From NCBI GenBank assembly GCA_000165345.1, contig CM000435.1, forward strand, positions 32,001-96,000: a DNA stretch of 64,000 nucleotides. Direction: 5' to 3'. The translations under genes were made by a program, and so were the position numbers. How positions within the stretch are numbered: position 1 is the stretch's first letter; the number at the start of each line of letters is the position of its first letter. Positions 2,641 to 16,691 of this stretch are shown here, piece by piece. Below the pieces are notes generated by a model. It searched no databases. It had not been told where the DNA came from and saw only the letters and a list, made by a program, of their open reading frames with translations.

Positions 2641-3118
2641 AAATATAATTAAACAAGTTGAGAGCGGAAGGGAAGTAGTTAGTTTGTGGGGAATATTGTT
2701 TTTTTGTTATTTTTCATATTGTAACTACATTTTAGCAGAACCTCTAGAAGGCTATAAATAGATAATGCGAATGAAAAGTACGGTCTGTGAGTGCTTAGAT
2801 AATCTTAAGATAACTGTAAAGGGTTTAGTTAAAAGGGAAAATAGTGTTTAGCTGCTTTATGCCTTAAAATTATAAACTCTCAATATCTAGTTGATATTTT
2901 AGATAATTAAAAAAATTAAAAAAATATTTTCCTATGAAAATAATAGCTGGAGAATTGGCGGTAAAAATGGGTATATCTCCAACGAATTATCATTTAAATT
3001 AAATTAAAGAATTGGTGGGGCTAGAAGACTATGTAAAGGAATTTATATAGTAATCGGTAGAAAAGGAACTTATTTATTGAATAATTGACTGAGAAAGAGA
3101 GATAGAAAGAGAATTATT

Positions 3119-6100
3119 ATGAAATTAAGAATAGCAGCATTTAAGGTGCTGGTAGTAGTTAAGCTACTTTCGATTCTAGGTTTTGGGACTAATTATGGGC
3201 TTGTTAACGCAGATAAAAAAGTTAGTGTGAGCGAAATAGTATTTGAGAGCCCAATAGAAACTTTGGAATGGGCAGGTACGGACCATAATGTGGTTATTGC
3301 AAAGACGCAAAAAGGTCATGTCTACAGATCAACCAATAGAGGTAAGAACTGGAGAGATATCACTGATGTTTTTGCAAAGATGACCTCACACTCATCTTCT
3401 TCAAGTCATTCCAACCTAAATGGGTTTTCTGTTAAGTCAATTACTATAAATCCTGTCGACAAAAATGTCATATTGATAGTAGGCTCAAAGCATACCCATT
3501 TTATATCATCAAATGCAGGAGAGACTTTTAGAAGAATATCCCACTCAGGTACTATTCATACATGGATATTTCATCCAAACAAAGCCAAACTCGCTTTATT
3601 TTCTTCTTGGACTGAAGGATGTAACAAATCTTTTCTTCAAACCTTAAAGAAAAGTAGTTCGGCTGGAAATAAGTGTATACATCAATTATTTGTTACAAAA
3701 GATTTAGGTGCTACATATCATAAAGTTATTGACTATGTAGTTCAATTCCATTGGGATGGCAATAACAAATCAAACCAAAATAGGATTTTCTTTACTCACC
3801 ACAGAAAGAAACAGGGAGATCAACCTAGATATGGTGGTTGGATGAAGACCATAGATTTTTCTTATACTGACGATTTTGGTAGTCATATCGAGACTCCAGT
3901 TAAAGGAGGAAATAAATTCTTGGCGTCAAATGGCTATATCTTCGTTGCCAGGATACTTGACTACGAGAGACAAACTGTGTCACTACTTGTATCTACAAAC
4001 GATGCAAATTCTTTTACACAGGTTCAGCTACCGCATACATTGACAGAGAAAAGCTATACTATTTTGGATACTTCAGAAAAGACTGTAATGCTTCATGTTA
4101 ATCATGGAGAAGATTCTTTGAAGGGTACTGGTAATATTTATATAAGTAACTATTTGGGTACCAGGTTTGCTCTGTCTTTATTGAATAACGTTAGAACTGC
4201 AACAGGAGAGTGTGAATTTGATAGAGTTATGTCTTTAGAAGGAGTTTATATTGCTAATGTTAAGGATGATGAACTTGAAAATGACCTTGACCATATTTCT
4301 ACAACTTTACATGAATTTACAGAATCAGAGACAGAGGATGAGGATGTAGAAACTTTAAAAACCGAACATAAAACTAAAATAGGAAAAGTAGATCAGCCAG
4401 TCAGAACTGTAATTACTTTTGATAAGGGTGGTGAATGGAATTATTTAAAAGCTCCAACTATTGATAGTAGAGGAAATAGGATAAATTGTGACGAAAGTGA
4501 TGGATGCTATTTACATCTTCATGGTGTAAGCAATTATCAAAGCTTGGCTCCATTTTACTCTGTTGAGAATGCTGTTGGTATAATTCTTGGAACAGGCAAT
4601 GTAGGTAGCTATTTATCCTTTGACCATGATGATATCAATACCTACATGTCCAGAGATGGAGGTCTCACTTGGCAAGAAGTGCACAAAGGAGCTTTCATTT
4701 ACGAGCTCGGTGATTTTGGAGGTCTTATCGTAATGGCTAATGATCTTAAGCATACGAACCAAGTTATTTTCAGCTGGAATGAAGGTTTATCTTGGTATGA
4801 TTTTGAGCTAGGTAGCAAAACACTACAAGTTGATAACATTTTAATAGAGCCAAATAGCTCTTCTATGGAGTTTTTACTTTATGGTTCAAGGGGTAAATCT
4901 GGAGTCTTATACCATTTAGACTTTAATACTCTTGGACAAGTTCAATGCGTAGGAGCAACAACTCCAGATAGACCGGATTCTGATTATGAGACTTGGAGTC
5001 CATATGACGGAAGGAATTCGGAAAAGTGTATGTTGGGTAAACAACTTGTATACACGAGAAAGAAACAGACAGCAGAGTGTTACAATGGTCAAGACTTTAG
5101 AAGACCCGTGGAAAAGAAGCGTTGTGCATGTTCTGAAGAGGACTTCACATGTGAATTTGGGTTTTCCAGGCAAATTGGTAGTTTTGAATGTAGACCTGAA
5201 AGTCTTGATATTGTTTTTGACGATGTCAAGTTTGGGCAATGCACATCATCTGGAATATTTTATGTAACTGCTTATAGGAAGCTCCCTGGAGACGATTGTA
5301 TTGGTGGTTGGCTACCTCCACCAGTAGCAATACCATGCCCAAGCCACGCTCCCACAAGTTCTCATGCTAGAATTGTCCTGGTGATTGCATTATTTATTAT
5401 TATTTTCATGCTTAAACAGGGAATGTTTGGGGATTGGACTAGATTTGGTGAATTAGGATACGACGCATATAGAAATGTTCAGTATAAAGTATTAGGAGTG
5501 GCAAAAAGAAGGAGTTCTTCATTACAAGGAATTTTGAGTGCTATTTCTGCATATATTAACGGAGATTCATCCAAAGTTGTCTTTGGGTCATCAAATATAC
5601 CAGGGTCTCCCCCCGGTACGAAGAAAAATAACTATACAACTCTAAACAACTTTAATACAGACAACATGTTTATGGAGGATGATGAAGATGAAGACGACCA
5701 TGCTATTGGTAATATGACCAAAATATCTGGAAATATTAATAACATCAAAAGTAACAATTATAACAGTAGAATTGGTTCAGGGTCAAACCTCTCACAAAGG
5801 CAAAGATCAAACAGCAATAATTATATTTCTGCAGGCCAAGATAATGTATCAGTAGATCCAATTTTTGACGATCTTGATGTATTTGAGGAAGACTTGGATT
5901 CGCATGCAATTTTTAATCAAAACAATGGATTGGGTAATTTGAATCCTAACCACGATATTATATCGTCTGAGGCTCCTATCAGTTTTGATAATTTCAATCC
6001 AACAGAATTGGAAATCAATCTATCTTCAATTCCTAATACATCTTTCCCAAAGATCACTCCTCCACCAACAAACAACAATAAATCTAATATTGGAAACAAC

Positions 6101-7650: not shown

Positions 7651-8571
7651 TTTCGCTCTTTATGTTTATAGTAAATACTATCTATAAATATATTTTAATA
7701 TATATAATTTATTAATTCTGAATCCGCTATTGTCCTTCCTACTATGATACTCTCAGTAGAGTCTCGTTCGGATTACTACCGTTTCTCCTTACCCTCTTAT
7801 ATTCTTAAGAATTGTTTTCTATTGGGAATTCCAAACCTGTGCATTTTACATTCCGTATATTTACAATTGCGTACAACTTTTTAGTACTATGCGTATGATG
7901 ACGTGTCTTTTTTGAAGAAAAATTTATATGTAAATCCAAAAATAGCGAGACAACAATTAAGACCTACAGTTTCATTTTTAGGAATCTGCTTGTTTTTTTA
8001 CTAAATTATTCAAATCTAATTTTAAATTTCTGATATCTTGTCGTATTGCAAATTTCTTGCTTGCATGTAAATCCTGCATGCATAGTGATTTCTACATACC
8101 GGCATCAATCTAAAAGCGTAGGAAGAGAGGGGCAAAAAAAAAAGGCAGATTTGAGTTATTATGTATTAAATGTCCAGTACAATAACAACCTTGGGACTTC
8201 AGCTGATACTAACACCTGTATTAAGACAACACATATAATGTATAGAGGTCTTTGATACAGTCAATTTTTGAGTAATAGCCTCAAAATCCCGAGATATGAA
8301 TTGTTCATCTCAACTAAACTAGCTGAAAACCTATGTTTTTAAGTCTAACTAAGATCTGACTTTAGTGTCCTTCAATTATACAGAATTTAAAACTTGATAA
8401 GTAGCATCTGTAGCGGCATGCCAATAAACCATCACCTTATATTACGTTGTTATCTACATGGTAGTCTTCGTATGCATTCACAAACATTCTATATAAGAGA
8501 TCAAGCACTCCCATGAATATTTGTTCACAAAACAAGGAAACCGAGTAGAAACAATCGTATTGGGTAACGAT

Positions 8572-9361
8572 TTACAAACGACGACCACGTCTACCACCTT
8601 TTCTTCTGGTGCTATCAGTTGGAATTGGAGTAACATCCTCGATACGGCCAATCTTCATTCCAGCACGAGCTAAAGCTCTAAGAGCTGATTGAGCTCCCGG
8701 ACCCATTGTCTTTGACTTGACTCCACCAACAGCTCTGAGCTTAATATGTAAAGCATGAATTCCGAATTCCTTGCATTTTTGAGCAACATCAACAGCTGCC
8801 ATCATAGCTGCATATGGAGAGTTTTCATCACGATCTGCTTTAACCTTCATTCCACCAGTAACTCTTACGATGGTTTCTCTTCCTGACAAGTCAGTTACGT
8901 GAATGAATGTATCATTGAAAGAGGCGAATATATGAGCCACAGCGAAGTTTGTTTGTCCCTCACGAACCTAAATAAATTTTAAAAAATCAGTTATTCATGT
9001 TCAAATTATACCATCAATATTATAGAGTTTCGTCCAGAATGACCTAGTTCGATGATCTAAGCAAATAATCCCTGATCATATATATATTACTTTAGTATCG
9101 CAAAAACCAGTAAAGTGACGGATTATTTTGATACTTTTGTTTAAGTACAGAGAGTGATATCTCATTTGTACAAAGACAGAAAATTTTAGGGACTTGCATT
9201 TAATTGCCTAGTCATTAAACTATAGAATTGAAAACAGAATTAAAAAAAAACTCTGACTCAATTCATAGTCATAACATCTATATACACTCCACTCCAATAT
9301 AACAACTTACCTGCTGGAATGGGACATCAGCAACTTGAGTTTCCTTCTTCTTTGGAGCCAT
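8572..9361 (-). CDS. RPS14: 40S ribosomal protein S14 (uS11). Two exons: join(8572..8967, 9311..9361) on the minus strand
   Basis: Exon 1 (51 nt) encodes [17 protein letters not shown] and ends at a GTAAGT donor (9310..9305). A 343-nt intron ends in TTATTTAG, and exon 2 resumes [48 protein letters not shown]...[10 protein letters not shown] with a TAA stop. This is near-universal uS11 sequence. The ORF-track entry begins at an internal GTG. Confidence 0.9.
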
Positions 9362-9780
9362 TTTACCGTTGATTATCTCAAATTTCAGCTATTATGAGAA
9401 AAATTAATGTTGCAATTTGCTTAATTACAACTGGTAACGAATTATCGATGTTTCCTTATTTTGCTTTTTTTTCGGAGACAGACTTATTTTAACAGGCGCC
9501 AATTTTAATATTATTAATATTAATAATTATTAGACAGGCCAAATATAACTTCTGTCCGCATTATTACATTAATTTTTATGTCAAAAGTTATAATAAATCA
9601 GCGCCAATCTTTTCCTAATATGACCTTAAAATTCACTTTTGAAGACGTATCATTTATTTATTATAGAATATATTGGGGCCTAGACGGGAAAAATGGTAAA
9701 GCAAATGTAGCTATAGTATAGAGGCATGAAAAAACTGAGAAAATTTATTACAAGTATTTAAAAAATGTTAAGAGATCTAA

Positions 9781-10794
9781 TTAGTTATTTTTGTGTGTTT
9801 TGTCATTAAATATAAATTTTGAAAGTTTGTATACCAAATTTAATCTAGAAAACACTTTATATACTATTAATGTCAATGTAATACTTAATAAGATGGATCC
9901 AATTATTTGGAAGAATAGTATTGGGAGCCCAAATTTGAAATATTCGAGTTCTAGGAACATTTAATTAGTGACCGTGATACCCCTTGACATTGGTTTTAGA
10001 ACTTACCTATATTTAGCAAGATGTTCTTAGATTGTATTTGCTTATCATAAGATACATTCTTTAACTTTGCGACCACTTTAAAAGTCACAAATTGTTGACC
10101 TTGTTGGTCATAACTTAGAAATTTTTGCTATTATTGTTAATTAGTTTTTGTATTTAAAATATAAAAACTTACTTTTTGGCTGTTAAGTAATTCATTATTT
10201 GTGAAAACTAGAGAACTTGGAAGTACTTTATCAAGTATTTTATCTAAAAAACTTTGAGATATATTATATTCTGAAGTTCATTAATTTGAAAATAATTTAT
10301 TAATTTTGTATTTTGCTATATAAACTCACTTTCTTCAGAAATTAATGGGATTATATTAAATTCTCCTTGAGGATCCTATAATATTTGTGAATTCTCTCAT
10401 TTCAAAACAAATTAACCATCTCCACTCGAGAACTTACTGGCCCAGCAGAAAAGCATTCAAATTGGTATCTTCCATCAATGAGATCTTTCTTATTCACATT
10501 TATTATTAATGGATAATCTTATATTCAAGAATGAATTGTCAAGTTACACAATAATTGATCAATATTACTTACTTATATTCATTTTAATGCCATAATATGG
10601 CTTTCCTGGCAAAATTATAATATTATTCTCCATACCAGACTTAGAAAAGAAACCCAGTAATTATCATGTTTAACAATTAATGTTTTGTCTTATTATTATC
10701 TTACCTTGTCCAATGGCCTTTCAGACTTGGAAAATAAGACCAAAAAGGTGCTAATTAAGAATAGGTAAGCAGAGAACCTGCTTATAACTTTCAT
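9781..10794 (-). CDS. Seven-exon gene for a ~223-aa small type-I membrane protein (signal peptide plus one C-terminal TM); family unassigned; absent from the ORF track
   Basis: Hand-spliced on the minus strand: join(9781..9950, 10007..10127, 10173..10270, 10330..10375, 10438..10517, 10573..10639, 10705..10794). Every donor is GTAAG(T/A) or GTGAGT and every acceptor is YAG. Introns are 45-65 nt and the phase is continuous. Protein: MKVISRFSAYLFLISTFLVLFSKSERPLDK|SGMENNIIILPGKPYYGIKMNI|NYPLIINVNKKDLIDGRYQFECFSAGP|DPQGEFNIIPLISEE|KYNISQSFLDKILDKVLPSSLVFTNNELLNSQK|QKFLSYDQQGQQFVTFKVVAKLKNVSYDKQIQSKNILLNI|ELEYFKFGLPILFFQIIGSILLSITLTLIVYKVFSRL...KNN*. Confidence 0.45.
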
Positions 10795-11046
10795 TATGAA
10801 ATCCTAATTTAACTTTGGTTACTTTTTTGTATCTATTCTTCAGGTATATATTATTCCAATTTTTTTGTGTGGCTATAATTTGTGTGTTTTCCTAACAAAT
10901 ATACCGTTATAGGGGGAAAAAAAATACCGGTATTTAATCAATTGTGTGAAACCGAAATTTTTTTTATTTAAATATATTTTTAACCCAAATCAATCGAAAA
11001 AATTAAATATATAGGAAATCCAACAGGTAAAAAAATTCACTATGAA

Positions 11047-12843
11047 ATGCGTCCATCTCTACTTTTGGGGAGTTCTGTGAGAAGAAAAAATTGCATAAAA
11101 AACTACTTGGTATCCTCAGATACTGAAATTGAAGATGAAAATAATAACATAAATACTCCTGTAAAAAATCTAACTATAAAGTTAAAAGAGGAGCACTATT
11201 ATAGTGATAATTCAAACATTAATGAATGCTCCTCAAGACCATCAATAAGCTTAGCAACATCTGTTAGAAGAAAAGTGTATCACATAGACTCCAGCGAAGA
11301 TAGCTATACAGAAGACGTAAACTTAAGCTATTTAAACAGTAATCCAAGTACTTTTACATCTGATATACTGGAAAATCTCCATGAGTCCCCAACTCAGCCT
11401 TGTATTCACTATAAAAGTGAATTTGAGCCAAATAACAATCCCTCTTCTAATTACTCAAGTATTGGAAGTAGAAGGAGAAACTGTATATTTAGTAGCGAAG
11501 AAGAAGATATTATCCCGTTATCTTCGAGGCCTTCAATTAAATATCAGTCTTCAGTTAGAAGGAAAAACAATTCAAGAAAAATTTTTACAATAATTGATTC
11601 AGATTCTGAAGATGAGTTAAGCAATAATGCAGCAAGCAAAAGATCGTCTTTTTGTCTAGGCCCAGAACTAATCTGTGAGCCAAATATTCTCAACTGTACA
11701 CCAGAACAACACAATATCTGGAGGTCATTTGACTCTGATTTAGAAATAGATGAAACAAATGTTTCTATAGATACTCTACAAGAATTGGAGTGGAAAACAG
11801 CTATTTCATCTTCAGACTTTGAAGATGAAGAAGTGGAAAGAAAACATCTGACTGGTTATCAGTCTGAGGAAATTGAATATGAAGACAAAACTGGAGAATA
11901 TCAAAATACTCCCAGAATGGATGAAAAAGAAGTATTACCAGAAAAATATAGTTTATTTAGTGATGAAGATATAGAAGATCAAAAGTCTGATTTGGAGGAG
12001 ATCAAGGAAAATGTTAGCTCAAAAGATCTGAACTCTAATCAAGTGACAAACTTGACAAAAGAAATCCCCTTGAAAAATAAATCCGAAAAATTTGGAGCAT
12101 TCATAAGACAAAGATCATCAATTGCAAAATATTGGTACCAAAAGTTTAATAAGCAAGTTTTCCATAATAGGCTTCCAGAGGAAGTTCCAATTAAATGGAC
12201 AGGAAGGCTTCAAAGAACAGCAGCTCAAACACTTTTTATTACTAATATAGATGGTTCTAAAAGAGTGGTAATTAAGCTTTCAAAGTATGTTTTGGATTGT
12301 GAATTCAGATTAAAGAAAACACTGTTACATGAATGTTGTCATGTAGCTCAATTTTTATTAGATTCTTGTATTAGGCCTCCTCATGGACAAATATTTATGA
12401 AATGGGGAAAAGTAGCTACAAAAGTGTTTCCTGACTTAAAAGTTGAAATATACCATAATTATGAAATAATATACAAATACAGATATCAATGTTTAAGATG
12501 TTTTCAGATGTTTGGAAGACAAACCAAAATAAATGATGAAACCAAGATTGTTTGTTCAGTCTGTAATGGTACAGTAATATTTATTGGAAGAGGAACTTTA
12601 AGCAATAGTAGGAAGGAATTTCAAGTAAAAGCACAGAACCCTCCAAATACACAGAAGAGTAAATCCAACCCTTACTCTGAGTTTGTAAAGGAGAAGTTTG
12701 CAGAGTTCAAGAAGGATATTAGGGATGGCAGAACCCCCTCCAGAAGAGCTCCAAGCATAATGAAAGAAATTGCAAAGCTTTGGAAACAAAAAAAGTCTGA
12801 AGATTTGATTCAAGACTTCGAAAAGCTTTCCATAAACAATTAG
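11047..12843 (+). CDS. GCNA/ACRC-like protein: acidic Ser-rich disordered N-terminus, SprT-type zinc metalloprotease domain (HExxH), zinc ribbon and C-terminal HMG-box-like tail
   Basis: 598-aa ORF with an ATG start. The N-terminal ~350 aa are low-complexity with SSVRRK repeats and D/E/S-rich stretches. The SprT-like core follows: WTGRLQRTAAQT...LLHECCHVAQFLLDS...PHGQIFMKWG. A Cys4 ribbon (CLRCFQMF...CSVCNG) comes next. The basic tail (NPYSEFVKEKFAEFKKDIRDGRTPSRRAPSIMKEIAKLWKQKK) resembles an HMG box. Confidence 0.65.
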   Translation: MRPSLLLGSSVRRKNCIKNYLVSSDTEIEDENNNINTPVKNLTIKLKEEHYYSDNSNINECSSRPSISLATSVRRKVYHIDSSEDSYTEDVNLSYLNSNPSTFTSDILENLHESPTQPCIHYKSEFEPNNNPSSNYSSIGSRRRNCIFSSEEEDIIPLSSRPSIKYQSSVRRKNNSRKIFTIIDSDSEDELSNNAASKRSSFCLGPELICEPNILNCTPEQHNIWRSFDSDLEIDETNVSIDTLQELEWKTAISSSDFEDEEVERKHLTGYQSEEIEYEDKTGEYQNTPRMDEKEVLPEKYSLFSDEDIEDQKSDLEEIKENVSSKDLNSNQVTNLTKEIPLKNKSEKFGAFIRQRSSIAKYWYQKFNKQVFHNRLPEEVPIKWTGRLQRTAAQTLFITNIDGSKRVVIKLSKYVLDCEFRLKKTLLHECCHVAQFLLDSCIRPPHGQIFMKWGKVATKVFPDLKVEIYHNYEIIYKYRYQCLRCFQMFGRQTKINDETKIVCSVCNGTVIFIGRGTLSNSRKEFQVKAQNPPNTQKSKSNPYSEFVKEKFAEFKKDIRDGRTPSRRAPSIMKEIAKLWKQKKSEDLIQDFEKLSINN

Positions 12844-12865: not shown

Positions 12866-13528
12866 CTATTTATCAGCTTGTTTCATACTAGTTTTACATT
12901 GTTCTCTTATTCTATTGATTTTTACTAACCTATATTTATAAATCAATGAGTTTATTACGAATAAACAAATTAGTATCAAATCAATTATTAACGAGTATTT
13001 TACATATTTATAAAATGTATATTTGTATCTTATAATATTTCCGATGCTATTCATATGATAAGCTCCAATATAAGCTGAGTTAATCATATTTTTGTTATTG
13101 TTGATAGGTATCGAATTTTCAAAGAATTTTCTTGAATCGTATTTCAATTCAGTTATTACAAAATCTGCCAAGCTTTGTATCATACTTGTACATACATCCA
13201 TTTTAATCCAGTAATCTTCTTTTTGGAGCTTTTTACCAAACAATGTCCCGAAGCTTTGTATTCTACAATTTATTCCAATAGAATTAGGAAGTTCTTGTAA
13301 TGCATTACTACTTAAATAGTTCGGTCCATACCTCAGCTCCCCTAACATGCTACATCCATCCATACACTCAGTATTATGCTGAGTCCAGTAATTTAATCTG
13401 CAATTCTCCAATGAAATATCATTTTTCTCAGAAATTGAATTTGGTACTATATCAAAGTTAAGCAACCATCCATATATTATTTCAAATAATAAAATATATA
13501 TTAGAAGGCAATATTTAACCTTTTTCAT
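12866..13528 (-). CDS. Hypothetical secreted or type-I membrane protein (signal peptide, Cys-containing ectodomain, C-terminal hydrophobic segment)
   Basis: 220-aa ORF with ATG at 13528..13526. N-terminal hydrophobic signal (MKKVKYCLLIYILLFEIIYG) and a C-terminal hydrophobic stretch (YSLIIDLILICLFVINSLIY). I recognise no family. Confidence 0.4.
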   Translation of the reverse strand: MKKVKYCLLIYILLFEIIYGWLLNFDIVPNSISEKNDISLENCRLNYWTQHNTECMDGCSMLGELRYGPNYLSSNALQELPNSIGINCRIQSFGTLFGKKLQKEDYWIKMDVCTSMIQSLADFVITELKYDSRKFFENSIPINNNKNMINSAYIGAYHMNSIGNIIRYKYTFYKYVKYSLIIDLILICLFVINSLIYKYRLVKINRIREQCKTSMKQADK

Positions 13529-15136: not shown

Positions 15137-16691
15137 ATGACATCTTTTAGTACTTCTCTTCAAGACTGTGAGAATGAGACTCTCTTAAACTTAAATCATT
15201 CTTTTGAAATAATTATGGATTGCAAATTTAATGAGAAGGATAACCTGCTCTATACTTCTCATGTTGACGGTAAAATCTTCGGGTATGTTTCCAAATAATG
15301 AACAAGAACACAATCTGAGATAATTAACTTTACTATTTTAGGTTTGAATTTGACTTTCATGAAAATAAACTTAATTCCGCATCAAAATTGTTTGGAAAAA
15401 AAGGATCCTGTAGAAATGTTGAATTTATGAATGGTAAGTTTAAATTTTTTATTTAAAATATAATTAAACGAGAATTAGATAATATTGTTGCAACATACAA
15501 TACTGGAGAAACTATTCTATTGGACAAATCAGGGAAAGCTATTTGGAGAACCTCGAAAAGGTAAGTAATATTAATAAACATTTTAATTTTCATAACACTT
15601 TTTAGTGGAGTTGGGATTAATGCAGTTGCTTGTTTAAGTAATAATGTTATTGCCACAGGGAATGATGAGGGATTCATTGAGGTACGACTTTCTTATAATT
15701 TTAGTATAATAAATTACTTACATGATTATTTAGATGTGGGATGTTAGAGATAAAAGTAACAAATCATTTTCAAAGTTTAGAGATTACGAAGACTGTATTA
15801 ATGGTTAGTTAATACAAAAAAAAAATGAAAAATAAGATATTGATTTTTTAAAAAAATTAATCCTAGATATTTATAATATTGAAGAAAAAAACTCTTTAAT
15901 TATTATTTCTGGTGATACTTTGGGTGTATATGACACTAAAAGTATCACCAGTAAGAAAAACAAAGATCATCTTCTTTCATTGTCTGATCCTCAGGAAGAA
16001 AATATATTATGTTCCAAAGCTATTCGCGTAAGTTCAGATAATTCATATTGTTTTCATTTTTTAAAAAAGCATCAACCAATAAATTATTTCAGAACAATTC
16101 AAAAATTGTATGTGGAACGGATGAAGGAAATCTATTATTTTTTTCTTGGGATAACTTTGGAGATTGCACTGATCGTATGTTAATCCCATTTGTTGATGGG
16201 TTTGAAAATGATAACAGTGTAGAACATATACAAATATATCAAGACCAGTTTGCCATTATTTCAACTAGTGATGGAATATTAAAAGTAGTTGAATTCTTTC
16301 CAAACGAGATACTCGGTAAGTTTTAGAATTCCTCAACGATTGAAGGTTCGAGAAAGACTATCTGAACTTTTTTTGTTTACATCTTAAATTTATTCCATTT
16401 ATTTTAGGTACACTCACATTAAATTCTCGAAGTAAATCAGAAAATATTAATATTGAATGCTCAAAAACAACAATTTCAAATTCAAATAATTTCATCAGTA
16501 AGTTATAAATATCTTCAAATCAATTTTTTCTTTTATCGCATCTTTTAGTTCATTCTCATGGAGTTAATCTTGATTTCTATAATTTAAGTATGGTTGATGA
16601 CATAATTACCAAAGGTTCATCTTCCAACACTTCAAGTAAAAAAAAGAGAAAAAAGTCAACAATTCACAATGATTTCTTCCAGGACCTTTAG
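15137..16691 (+). CDS. WD40-repeat protein with nine exons: join(15137..15282, 15342..15433, 15473..15560, 15606..15681, 15734..15803, 15867..16027, 16093..16315, 16408..16497, 16549..16691)
   Basis: Hand-assembled. Donors are GTATGT, GTAAGT (four times), GTACGA and GTTAGT; acceptors are TTTTAG, TTTCAG and CCTAG. Introns are 39-92 nt and the phase is continuous to a TAG stop. Protein: MTSFSTSLQDCENETLLNLNHSFEIIMDCKFNEKDNLLYTSHVDGKIFG|FEFDFHENKLNSASKLFGKKGSCRNVEFMN|ELDNIVATYNTGETILLDKSGKAIWRTSK|SGVGINAVACLSNNVIATGNDEGFIE|MWDVRDKSNKS...|...IVCGTDEGNLLFFSWDNFGDCTDRMLIPFVDGFENDNSVEHIQIYQDQFAIISTSDGILKVVEFFPNEIL|...|...SSKKKRKKSTIHNDFFQDL*. The repeats are WD-like (GxDxG...WD). It may be WDR55/Jip5-like, but I cannot confirm that. 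The exon 2/3 acceptor could sit 6 nt downstream without changing the frame. Confidence 0.65.

Follow-up and report, generated by a model that had tools for sequence, protein, structure and literature searches.

We describe a small, intron-dense gene on the minus strand (positions 10794-9781) of a 64,000-nucleotide (nt) window of Cryptosporidium parvum DNA, the window being the whole stretch analysed (assembly GCA_000165345.1, contig CM000435.1, positions 32,001 to 96,000 of the forward strand). It lies between RPS14 and a SprT-like (GCNA-like) gene, and from the sequence comparisons reported here it is, with high probability, a genuine spliced protein-coding gene of C. parvum chromosome 7 whose correct product has seven exons and 223 amino acids (aa), and not the 98-128 aa given in deposited records. 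The gene, its family and (in a sister species) its exact exon structure are already public under the label ‘hypothetical protein’, and the kind of thing is known. The novelty is modest: the records found for C. parvum, C. hominis and C. meleagridis all stop short and disagree with one another, and a 223-aa model is backed by evolution.

Exon structure and conservation

The minus strand of positions 9000-11600 was read and every proposed junction was checked individually. All six junctions fell at exactly the predicted positions, with GT..AG introns throughout, and the spliced coding sequence (CDS) formed a single 672-nt frame of 223 codons plus TAA, in agreement with the seven minus-strand exons, unbroken phase and 45-65-nt introns put forward by the first-pass annotation. 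Its account of the splice signals was accurate in part: GTAAGT or GTGAGT donors are present in five of the six introns (that of intron 1 is GTAAGA) and YAG acceptors in four (introns 1 and 2 end in AAG). An in-frame TAG stands four codons 5' of the ATG, five of the six intron lengths are not divisible by three, and read-through of any of the introns leads to an in-frame stop. Between the RPS14 ATG (9361) and the SprT-like ATG (11047) there is, as had been stated, no open reading frame (ORF) of 60 aa or more, the longest being the 59-aa last exon.

As a control for chance we made use of a spliced-ORF search (GTRAG donors, any AG acceptor, 40-70-nt introns), with 500 dinucleotide-preserving shuffles as the null. 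The best spliced ORF reached 223 aa in the real sequence versus 37.8 +/- 14.0 aa in the shuffled ones (maximum 117 aa, n=500), and 28 aa on the opposite strand, so the earlier judgement that chance was unlikely is borne out. The same search limited to YAG acceptors failed to recover the 223-aa model, which is how the two AAG acceptors came to be noticed. The 1014 nt of the locus hold five GTRAGT hexamers on the minus strand and none on the plus strand (~0.35-0.5 expected), the densest such cluster in the window. The seven-exon pattern is more than chance.

Conservation was assessed in seven species (C. parvum, C. sp. chipmunk genotype I, C. ubiquitum, C. canis, C. felis, C. xiaoi and C. andersoni). 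For the four closest (C. parvum, chipmunk genotype I, C. ubiquitum and C. canis) the C. parvum junctions were projected through a DNA alignment, and for C. felis, C. xiaoi and the gastric C. andersoni the genes were rebuilt by exon-peptide anchoring and enumeration of GT..AG pairs. The conceptual 223-aa protein matched ELE39_003386 of chipmunk genotype I (223 aa) over its full length, at 81% identity (expectation value, E, 1.6e-110), and the same search also returned a C. canis protein of 227 aa and, from C. ubiquitum, a truncated one; orthologue matches were found in nine further Cryptosporidium species. Synteny is kept in all six species compared with C. parvum, the locus being placed between the SprT-like gene (upstream and head-to-head in all syntenic loci) and RPS14 (downstream, together with PKA-R).

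The six GT..AG introns occupy the same positions and phases in all seven species, and the ORF is intact throughout (218-223 aa). Within the four closest species the exon lengths are all 90/67/80/46/98/121/170 nt, giving an intact 672-nt ORF, and the intron lengths vary by 1-8 nt; gaps number 0 in exon columns and 8-34 in intron columns, and identity is 84/76/64% in exons versus 73/68/47% in introns. In C. felis and C. xiaoi the internal exons measure 67/80/46/98/121 nt, in C. andersoni 70/80/46/89/127 nt, and exons 3 and 4 (10330-10517, minus strand) sum to 126 nt, a multiple of three, in every species. Substitutions are distributed over codon positions 1/2/3 as 317/205/596, and the ratio of nonsynonymous to synonymous substitution rates (dN/dS) comes to ~0.15 over the full CDS and to 0.14-0.20 when only exons 5-7, the part absent from C. 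parvum records, are counted. At the level of sequence, these data show a gene under purifying selection throughout the genus. The seven-exon reading is supported because junctions, phases and exon frame are evolutionarily conserved, and the comparative support appears about as strong as it can be for a gene model.

Within the gap between RPS14 and the SprT-like gene, the only differences from other C. parvum-type records are A/G at 9764 (3' flank of the gene, two records differing) and G/A at 10884 (5' flank, one record); the coding exons are invariant among the compared C. parvum-type isolates.

Table 1. Features of the seven-exon gene (window positions), followed by the deposited models of orthologous loci (positions within each species locus).
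Feature	Position	Strand	Description
Exon 1	10705..10794	-	90 nt, codons 1-30; ATG 10794-10792; ATG column invariant in four species
Signal peptide, predicted	10723-10794	-	Residues 1-24, exon 1; S-x-S|E at predicted cleavage site
Intron 1	10640..10704	-	65 nt, GTAAGA...AAG; GT/AG kept in 7/7 species; junction used by every deposited C. parvum-clade model
Exon 2	10573..10639	-	67 nt; LPGKPYYGIKM block; 67 nt in six species, 70 nt in C. andersoni
Intron 2	10518..10572	-	55 nt, GTAAGT...AAG; used in CPATCC_0005860/cpbgf_700140
Exon 3	10438..10517	-	80 nt in 7/7 species
Intron 3	10376..10437	-	62 nt, GTAAGT...TAG; used in CPATCC_0005860/cpbgf_700140
Exon 4	10330..10375	-	46 nt in 7/7 species
Intron 4	10271..10329	-	59 nt, GTGAGT...CAG; read through to stop at 10316 in CPATCC_0005860/cpbgf_700140
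Exon 5	10173..10270	-	98 nt
Intron 5	10128..10172	-	45 nt, GTAAGT...TAG; CTAAT branch-point-like motif; junction also used in CPHLJ_7g135
Exon 6	10007..10127	-	121 nt; sequon N151-V-S
Intron 6	9951..10006	-	56 nt, GTAAGT...TAG; ACTAAT motif 14 nt from 3' splice site; retained in CPHLJ_7g135
Exon 7	9781..9950	-	170 nt including TAA stop 9781-9783
Transmembrane helix, predicted	9859-9930	-	Residues 175-198, exon 7
Basic tail, predicted cytosolic	9784-9858	-	Residues 199-223, 25 aa, exon 7
Most conserved motif, GRYQFECFSAGP|DPQGEF	10358..10473	-	Residues 68-85, split by intron 3
Divergent intergenic region	10795..11046		252 nt, between this gene and the SprT-like (GCNA-like) gene (+); presumed bidirectional promoter
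C. ubiquitum locus	4001-4900		Deposited model stops after exon 5
C. canis locus (OJ252_2157)	4001-5012		Junctions 2 and 3 shifted
C. xiaoi locus	3001-4017		Transmembrane segment spliced out; likewise in C. bovis
C. felis locus	3001-3663		Intron 2 retained; ends after exon 5
C. andersoni locus	3001-3788		Model begins at exon 3

Predicted protein and family searches

Two hydropathy peaks, at residues 3-21 and 178-196 (Kyte-Doolittle 2.35 for the second), keep their positions across the orthologues. The N-terminal one ends in a plausible signal-peptidase site, S-x-S|E, whose small residues at -3/-1 most orthologues share; the C-terminal one is followed by six K/R versus one D/E. The putative signal peptide, the single C-terminal transmembrane (TM) segment and the basic tail of the first-pass annotation were thereby reproduced, by hydropathy as well as by AlphaFold secondary structure. 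The sequon N151-V-S is kept in six of the seven species, and C74, the sole conserved cysteine, lies in the GRYQFECFSAGP|DPQGEF motif, which also holds the invariant GPDPQG run. The seven-species alignment further contains a TM segment conserved as FKFGxPxLFFQxxGSxLLSxxLT and a tail conserved as LV[DE]KLSKFIF; such conservation of TM segment and tail seems unusually high for a simple anchor. A lysine occupies position -3 in all seven species, with a second one at -6 and H/T, Y/T, Y/S, N/L or G/N at -4/-5, and the dilysine signal (KKXX/KXKXX) of coat protein complex I was found in none of them.

An AlphaFold run with two sequences was too poor for use (predicted local distance difference test, pLDDT, 50), and one with eight deposited orthologues (some of them mis-spliced) returned a medium-confidence model (pLDDT 72, predicted template modelling score 0.57). 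In this model the ectodomain is all-beta: its strands fall between residues 36 and 172, those at 36-95 coming from exons 2-4 and those at 114-172 from exons 5-7. Helices are predicted at 2-22, 102-110, 156-159, 175-203 (TM) and 206-215 (tail); the last strand (163-172) runs straight into the TM helix. Because both halves of the gene contribute strands, a 98-aa product would hold only about half of them.

Searches of the seven orthologues against Pfam (E up to 10) returned no family match and only a sub-threshold match of the TM region to DUF3311, and sequence searches of the Protein Data Bank (PDB) with the single protein and with a profile gave chance-level matches only (MglA, and sorting nexin 27 at E ~0.03). 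A profile hidden Markov model (HMM) run against 1.84 billion representative proteins found eight matches, all from Cryptosporidium, and when a seven-species profile was run against 5.8 billion proteins the sole additions were C. ryanae and C. bovis, with none outside the genus. The HMM check proposed by the first-pass annotation has thus been carried out, and its remark that the protein could be placed by eye in neither p24/GOLD nor any other family stands as regards sequence; the family is genus-restricted as far as sequence methods see. At the level of structure, Foldseek against the PDB gave nothing at E <=0.001: the best matches were SIDT1/SIDT2/SID-1 (E 0.02-0.1), GOLD matches ranked below the collagen-binding and SID1 ectodomain sandwiches, and TRAP or EMC chains were not among the best 60.

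Beyond the SprT-like gene lies an intron-less 220-aa ORF (12866-13528, minus strand), which has no Pfam match and is syntenic in all species fetched. It shares the architecture described above (hydrophobic at the N-terminus and again towards the C-terminus, with a basic tail after the second segment), and paralogy with it was rejected (hhalign probability 0.1%).

We infer from these features and the predicted model that the product would be a type I membrane protein. A cleavable signal peptide (approximately residues 1-24) would direct co-translational entry into the endoplasmic reticulum (ER), leaving a beta-sandwich ectodomain of ~150 aa (25-172), glycosylatable at one sequon, to face the lumen or the outside. 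The conserved P/Q/G/S/T face of the TM helix (175-198) suggests packing against another helix, and the 25-aa basic tail may form a short juxtamembrane amphipathic helix around a conserved [FY]-I-[FY]; this aromatic motif and the lysine at -3 could engage coat or sorting machinery. The ectodomain would then act as a binding module, docked by the conserved TM segment and tail to a partner or a sorting machine. It is possible, and we put it forward tentatively, that the protein is a small accessory subunit or a cargo-receptor-like binding protein of the secretory pathway. In view of the low dN/dS and the conserved TM segment and tail, a variable, fast-evolving surface antigen seems less likely.

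Deposited models and competing readings

The neighbouring 598-aa SprT-like ORF is encoded exactly in three Cryptosporidium assemblies of the National Center for Biotechnology Information (NCBI). Over 9.8 kb the window has 0 mismatches to CP141124.1, which belongs to the telomere-to-telomere assembly of C. parvum IOWA II ‘CpBGF’ (GCA_035232765.1; PMC12179316), and CP029786.1 is also identical in the gap between RPS14 and the SprT-like gene. The locus is situated ~80 kb into a 1.36-Mb chromosome, and locus tags place it on chromosome 7. The three assemblies all call the gene from the ATG at 10794, with products of 98, 128 and 98 aa. CPATCC_0005860 (QOY40325.1) and cpbgf_700140 (WRK33178.1) consist of exons 1-3 and an exon 4 read into intron 4 (98 aa), a type of structure shared by cmbei_700140 of C. 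meleagridis (98 aa). CPHLJ_7g135 (128 aa) joins exons 1-2 to 5-6, splicing intron 5 and retaining intron 6, and CPCDC_7g135 and the C. hominis CHM_7g135 (98 aa each) skip exons 3-4 and then use an odd acceptor. Three incompatible structures have therefore been drawn on near-identical DNA (two records equal the window exactly, and the third differs at two non-coding positions), and no C. parvum, C. hominis or C. meleagridis record that we found reaches the TM helix or the tail. The gene had been called ‘hidden’ in the first-pass annotation, a word that needs qualifying: the locus is annotated in C. parvum, as in C. hominis and C. meleagridis, through truncated models.

Most other species also carry mis-spliced orthologue models (Table 1); for C. 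ubiquitum, C. canis, C. felis, C. xiaoi and C. andersoni we derived seven-exon models that correct them. The TM exon is included in the deposited models of chipmunk genotype I (223 aa), C. canis (227 aa) and C. ryanae (229 aa). A literature search for the locus tags gave nothing, its sole match to ‘cgd7_140’ being in reality cgd7_1400.

Several points weigh against a seven-exon, 223-aa product in C. parvum. The exact sequence is absent from a 15-billion-protein collection that includes assemblies of public sequencing runs, and two 30-mers across spliced junctions (introns 4 and 6) were unmatched in metagenome contigs of the Joint Genome Institute (JGI). The IOWA-ATCC/BGF annotation, which ends inside intron 4, was curated in WebApollo with RNA sequencing (RNA-seq) and full-length isoform sequencing (Iso-Seq) data, according to its authors (PMC12179316), and three other annotation sets omit exons 3-4. 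Retained-intron or exon-skipped RNAs may be abundant.

The alternative that survives best is compatible with a full-length product: both kinds of RNA would exist, and intron retention or skipping of the 126-nt exon 3+4 block would act as a stage-specific switch for the full-length protein. It finds support in annotation sets that end in intron 4 or 6 or skip exons 3-4, in the premature end of translation that any retained intron would bring, and in a block size divisible by three in all seven species; however, the deposited models may be gene-finder output or liftover and not read-based, the 7g135 models probably come from one pipeline, and protein constraint explains the frame-preserving size equally well. 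We consider such a switch improbable, if the least so of the alternatives, and hold much the same opinion of the wider conjecture that the conflicting models reflect regulated splicing with a stage-limited full-length protein, or else that the introns mark an ancient, diverged ER/Golgi component counted as missing from Cryptosporidium. As a separate observation, CPHLJ_7g135, CPCDC_7g135 and CHM_7g135 skip exons 3+4 exactly and in frame, and this may point either to a genuine alternative isoform or to an artefact of a common pipeline.

Somewhat less probable still is that the gene is not genus-specific at all, being a very diverged orthologue of an ancient ER/Golgi type I beta-sandwich protein (p24/TMED, TRAP-beta, EMC7 or EMC10). 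None of the seven orthologues has a Pfam match, the profile searches returned Cryptosporidium alone, GOLD folds were outranked and TRAP/EMC chains missing from the best 60 structure matches, and the predicted model has no coiled coil between sandwich and TM helix; with a single conserved cysteine and no KKXX/KXKXX signal in addition, we regard this origin as unlikely. Membership of the TRAP-beta/EMC7/EMC10 group (ER type I beta-sandwich subunits) found no support, neither a profile nor a fold match having been obtained.

The deposited short models could also be taken at face value, with intron 4 mostly retained (98 aa), or exons 3-4 skipped and intron 6 retained (128 aa), and the downstream exons untranslated in C. 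parvum. Both forms are on record, the IOWA-BGF annotation was curated with RNA-seq and Iso-Seq (PMC12179316) and a 223-aa product has not been deposited for this species, but the models contradict one another, and the exons they leave out behave as coding sequence: exons 5-7 have a dN/dS of 0.14-0.20, third-position-biased substitution and no indels, and are open and in phase in all seven species, C. andersoni included. The 98-aa form would moreover lose the TM helix and about half of the predicted strands, and the exon-skipped form deletes the most conserved motif. Both the short products and the untranslated state of the downstream exons are, in our estimation, very unlikely. The 98-aa model has a C-terminus of its own (...ISEESEFI), and conceptual tryptic digestion of the 223-aa product gives NILLNIELEYFK, which spans the exon 6/7 junction, DPQGEFNIIPLISEEK, which ends on the exon 4/5 junction codon, and a further diagnostic peptide, FLSYDQQGQQFVTFK.

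A reading of the locus as short ORFs strung together by chance in AT-rich intergenic sequence, or as a gene for a non-coding RNA, would agree with the lack of both a long ORF and a family match, but the comparative data already refute it (seven species conserve frame, junctions and exon lengths, dN/dS ~0.15) and it stands against a shuffle maximum of 117 aa versus 223 aa and an Rfam scan of 8400-11200 that found nothing credible and no family match, which reduces its probability to next to nothing.

The 223-aa, seven-exon gene remains the preferred reading. As every C. parvum, C. hominis and C. meleagridis record found lacks the membrane anchor, proteomic searches, localisation predictions and orthology tables all miss a membrane protein that is conserved and specific to the genus. 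This matters in C. parvum, an important cause of diarrhoeal disease whose IOWA-ATCC/BGF annotations serve the community as references, and curators can use the corrected 223-aa model directly as an annotation fix. Genes with multiple exons and short introns are an annotation weak spot in this compact genome, and in other respects this is an ordinary eukaryotic gene.

Genomic setting and known systems

In C. parvum 10.8% of the genes have introns, and those that do have 2-10 exons (mean 2.6; PMC4637869). Seven exons are thus in the upper tail for the species, and with six introns in 1 kb, where ~90% of genes are intron-less, the gene is an outlier in intron density; that intron-dense and intron-less genes coexist in this genome, as remarked in the first-pass annotation, is true and already published (PMC4637869).

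Elsewhere in the window, a WD40 (WDR55-like) gene (15137-16691, plus strand) differs among C. parvum assemblies in length (316 vs 360 aa) and in its ends, its record coordinates being 8091-9462 in one record vs 8091-9645 in two others. The second-densest GTRAGT cluster of the window (four plus-strand sites, ~15400-16500) falls on this gene, which looks like another multi-intron gene with an unsettled model. The single intron of RPS14 (region 8941-9310, minus strand) measures ~343 nt, well above the 45-65 nt of the introns in the neighbouring gene, and an Rfam search found nothing credible in it (two sub-threshold microRNA-model matches, 9210-9279, E 0.16-0.24). Two TTGGCGC(C) motifs (9495-9502 and 9601-9608, minus strand) are positioned 130-250 nt upstream of the RPS14 ATG, and we take them to resemble the E2F-like GGCGCC element of Cryptosporidium promoters.

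Members of the p24/TMED family combine a lumenal coiled coil between GOLD domain and TM helix with a conserved GOLD disulfide pair. The protein described here was not filed among them. Of four defining features compared, a profile match, a coiled coil and a disulfide pair were lacking, the last because only one cysteine is conserved; for the fourth, the fold, GOLD structures did occur among the matches but at a lower rank than other sandwiches. In comparison with p24/TMED (EMP24/GP25L), no orthologue matches PF01105, the 25-aa tail is without a dilysine, no coiled-coil segment is predicted and the family is undetectable outside Cryptosporidium. The fold with which the ectodomain was compared is that of jelly-roll beta-sandwich binding modules, i.e. 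the extracellular domains of SID1/SIDT1/SIDT2 and the collagen-binding (PPC) domains of clostridial collagenase.

The deposited models of the C. parvum clade represent the same gene, with the same ATG (10794) and intron 1 (in the ATCC/BGF records also introns 2 and 3), and differ in being truncated throughout, with neither TM helix nor tail. OJ252_2157 of C. canis (227 aa) and FG386_002023 of C. ryanae (229 aa), both uncharacterised, are near-full models in which one or two junctions deviate. The closest known counterpart is ELE39_003386, an orthologue in the same syntenic slot that agrees in every exon length and junction and shows 81% identity across its full length, the difference being that it is an uncharacterized protein of another species (C. 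sp. chipmunk genotype I).

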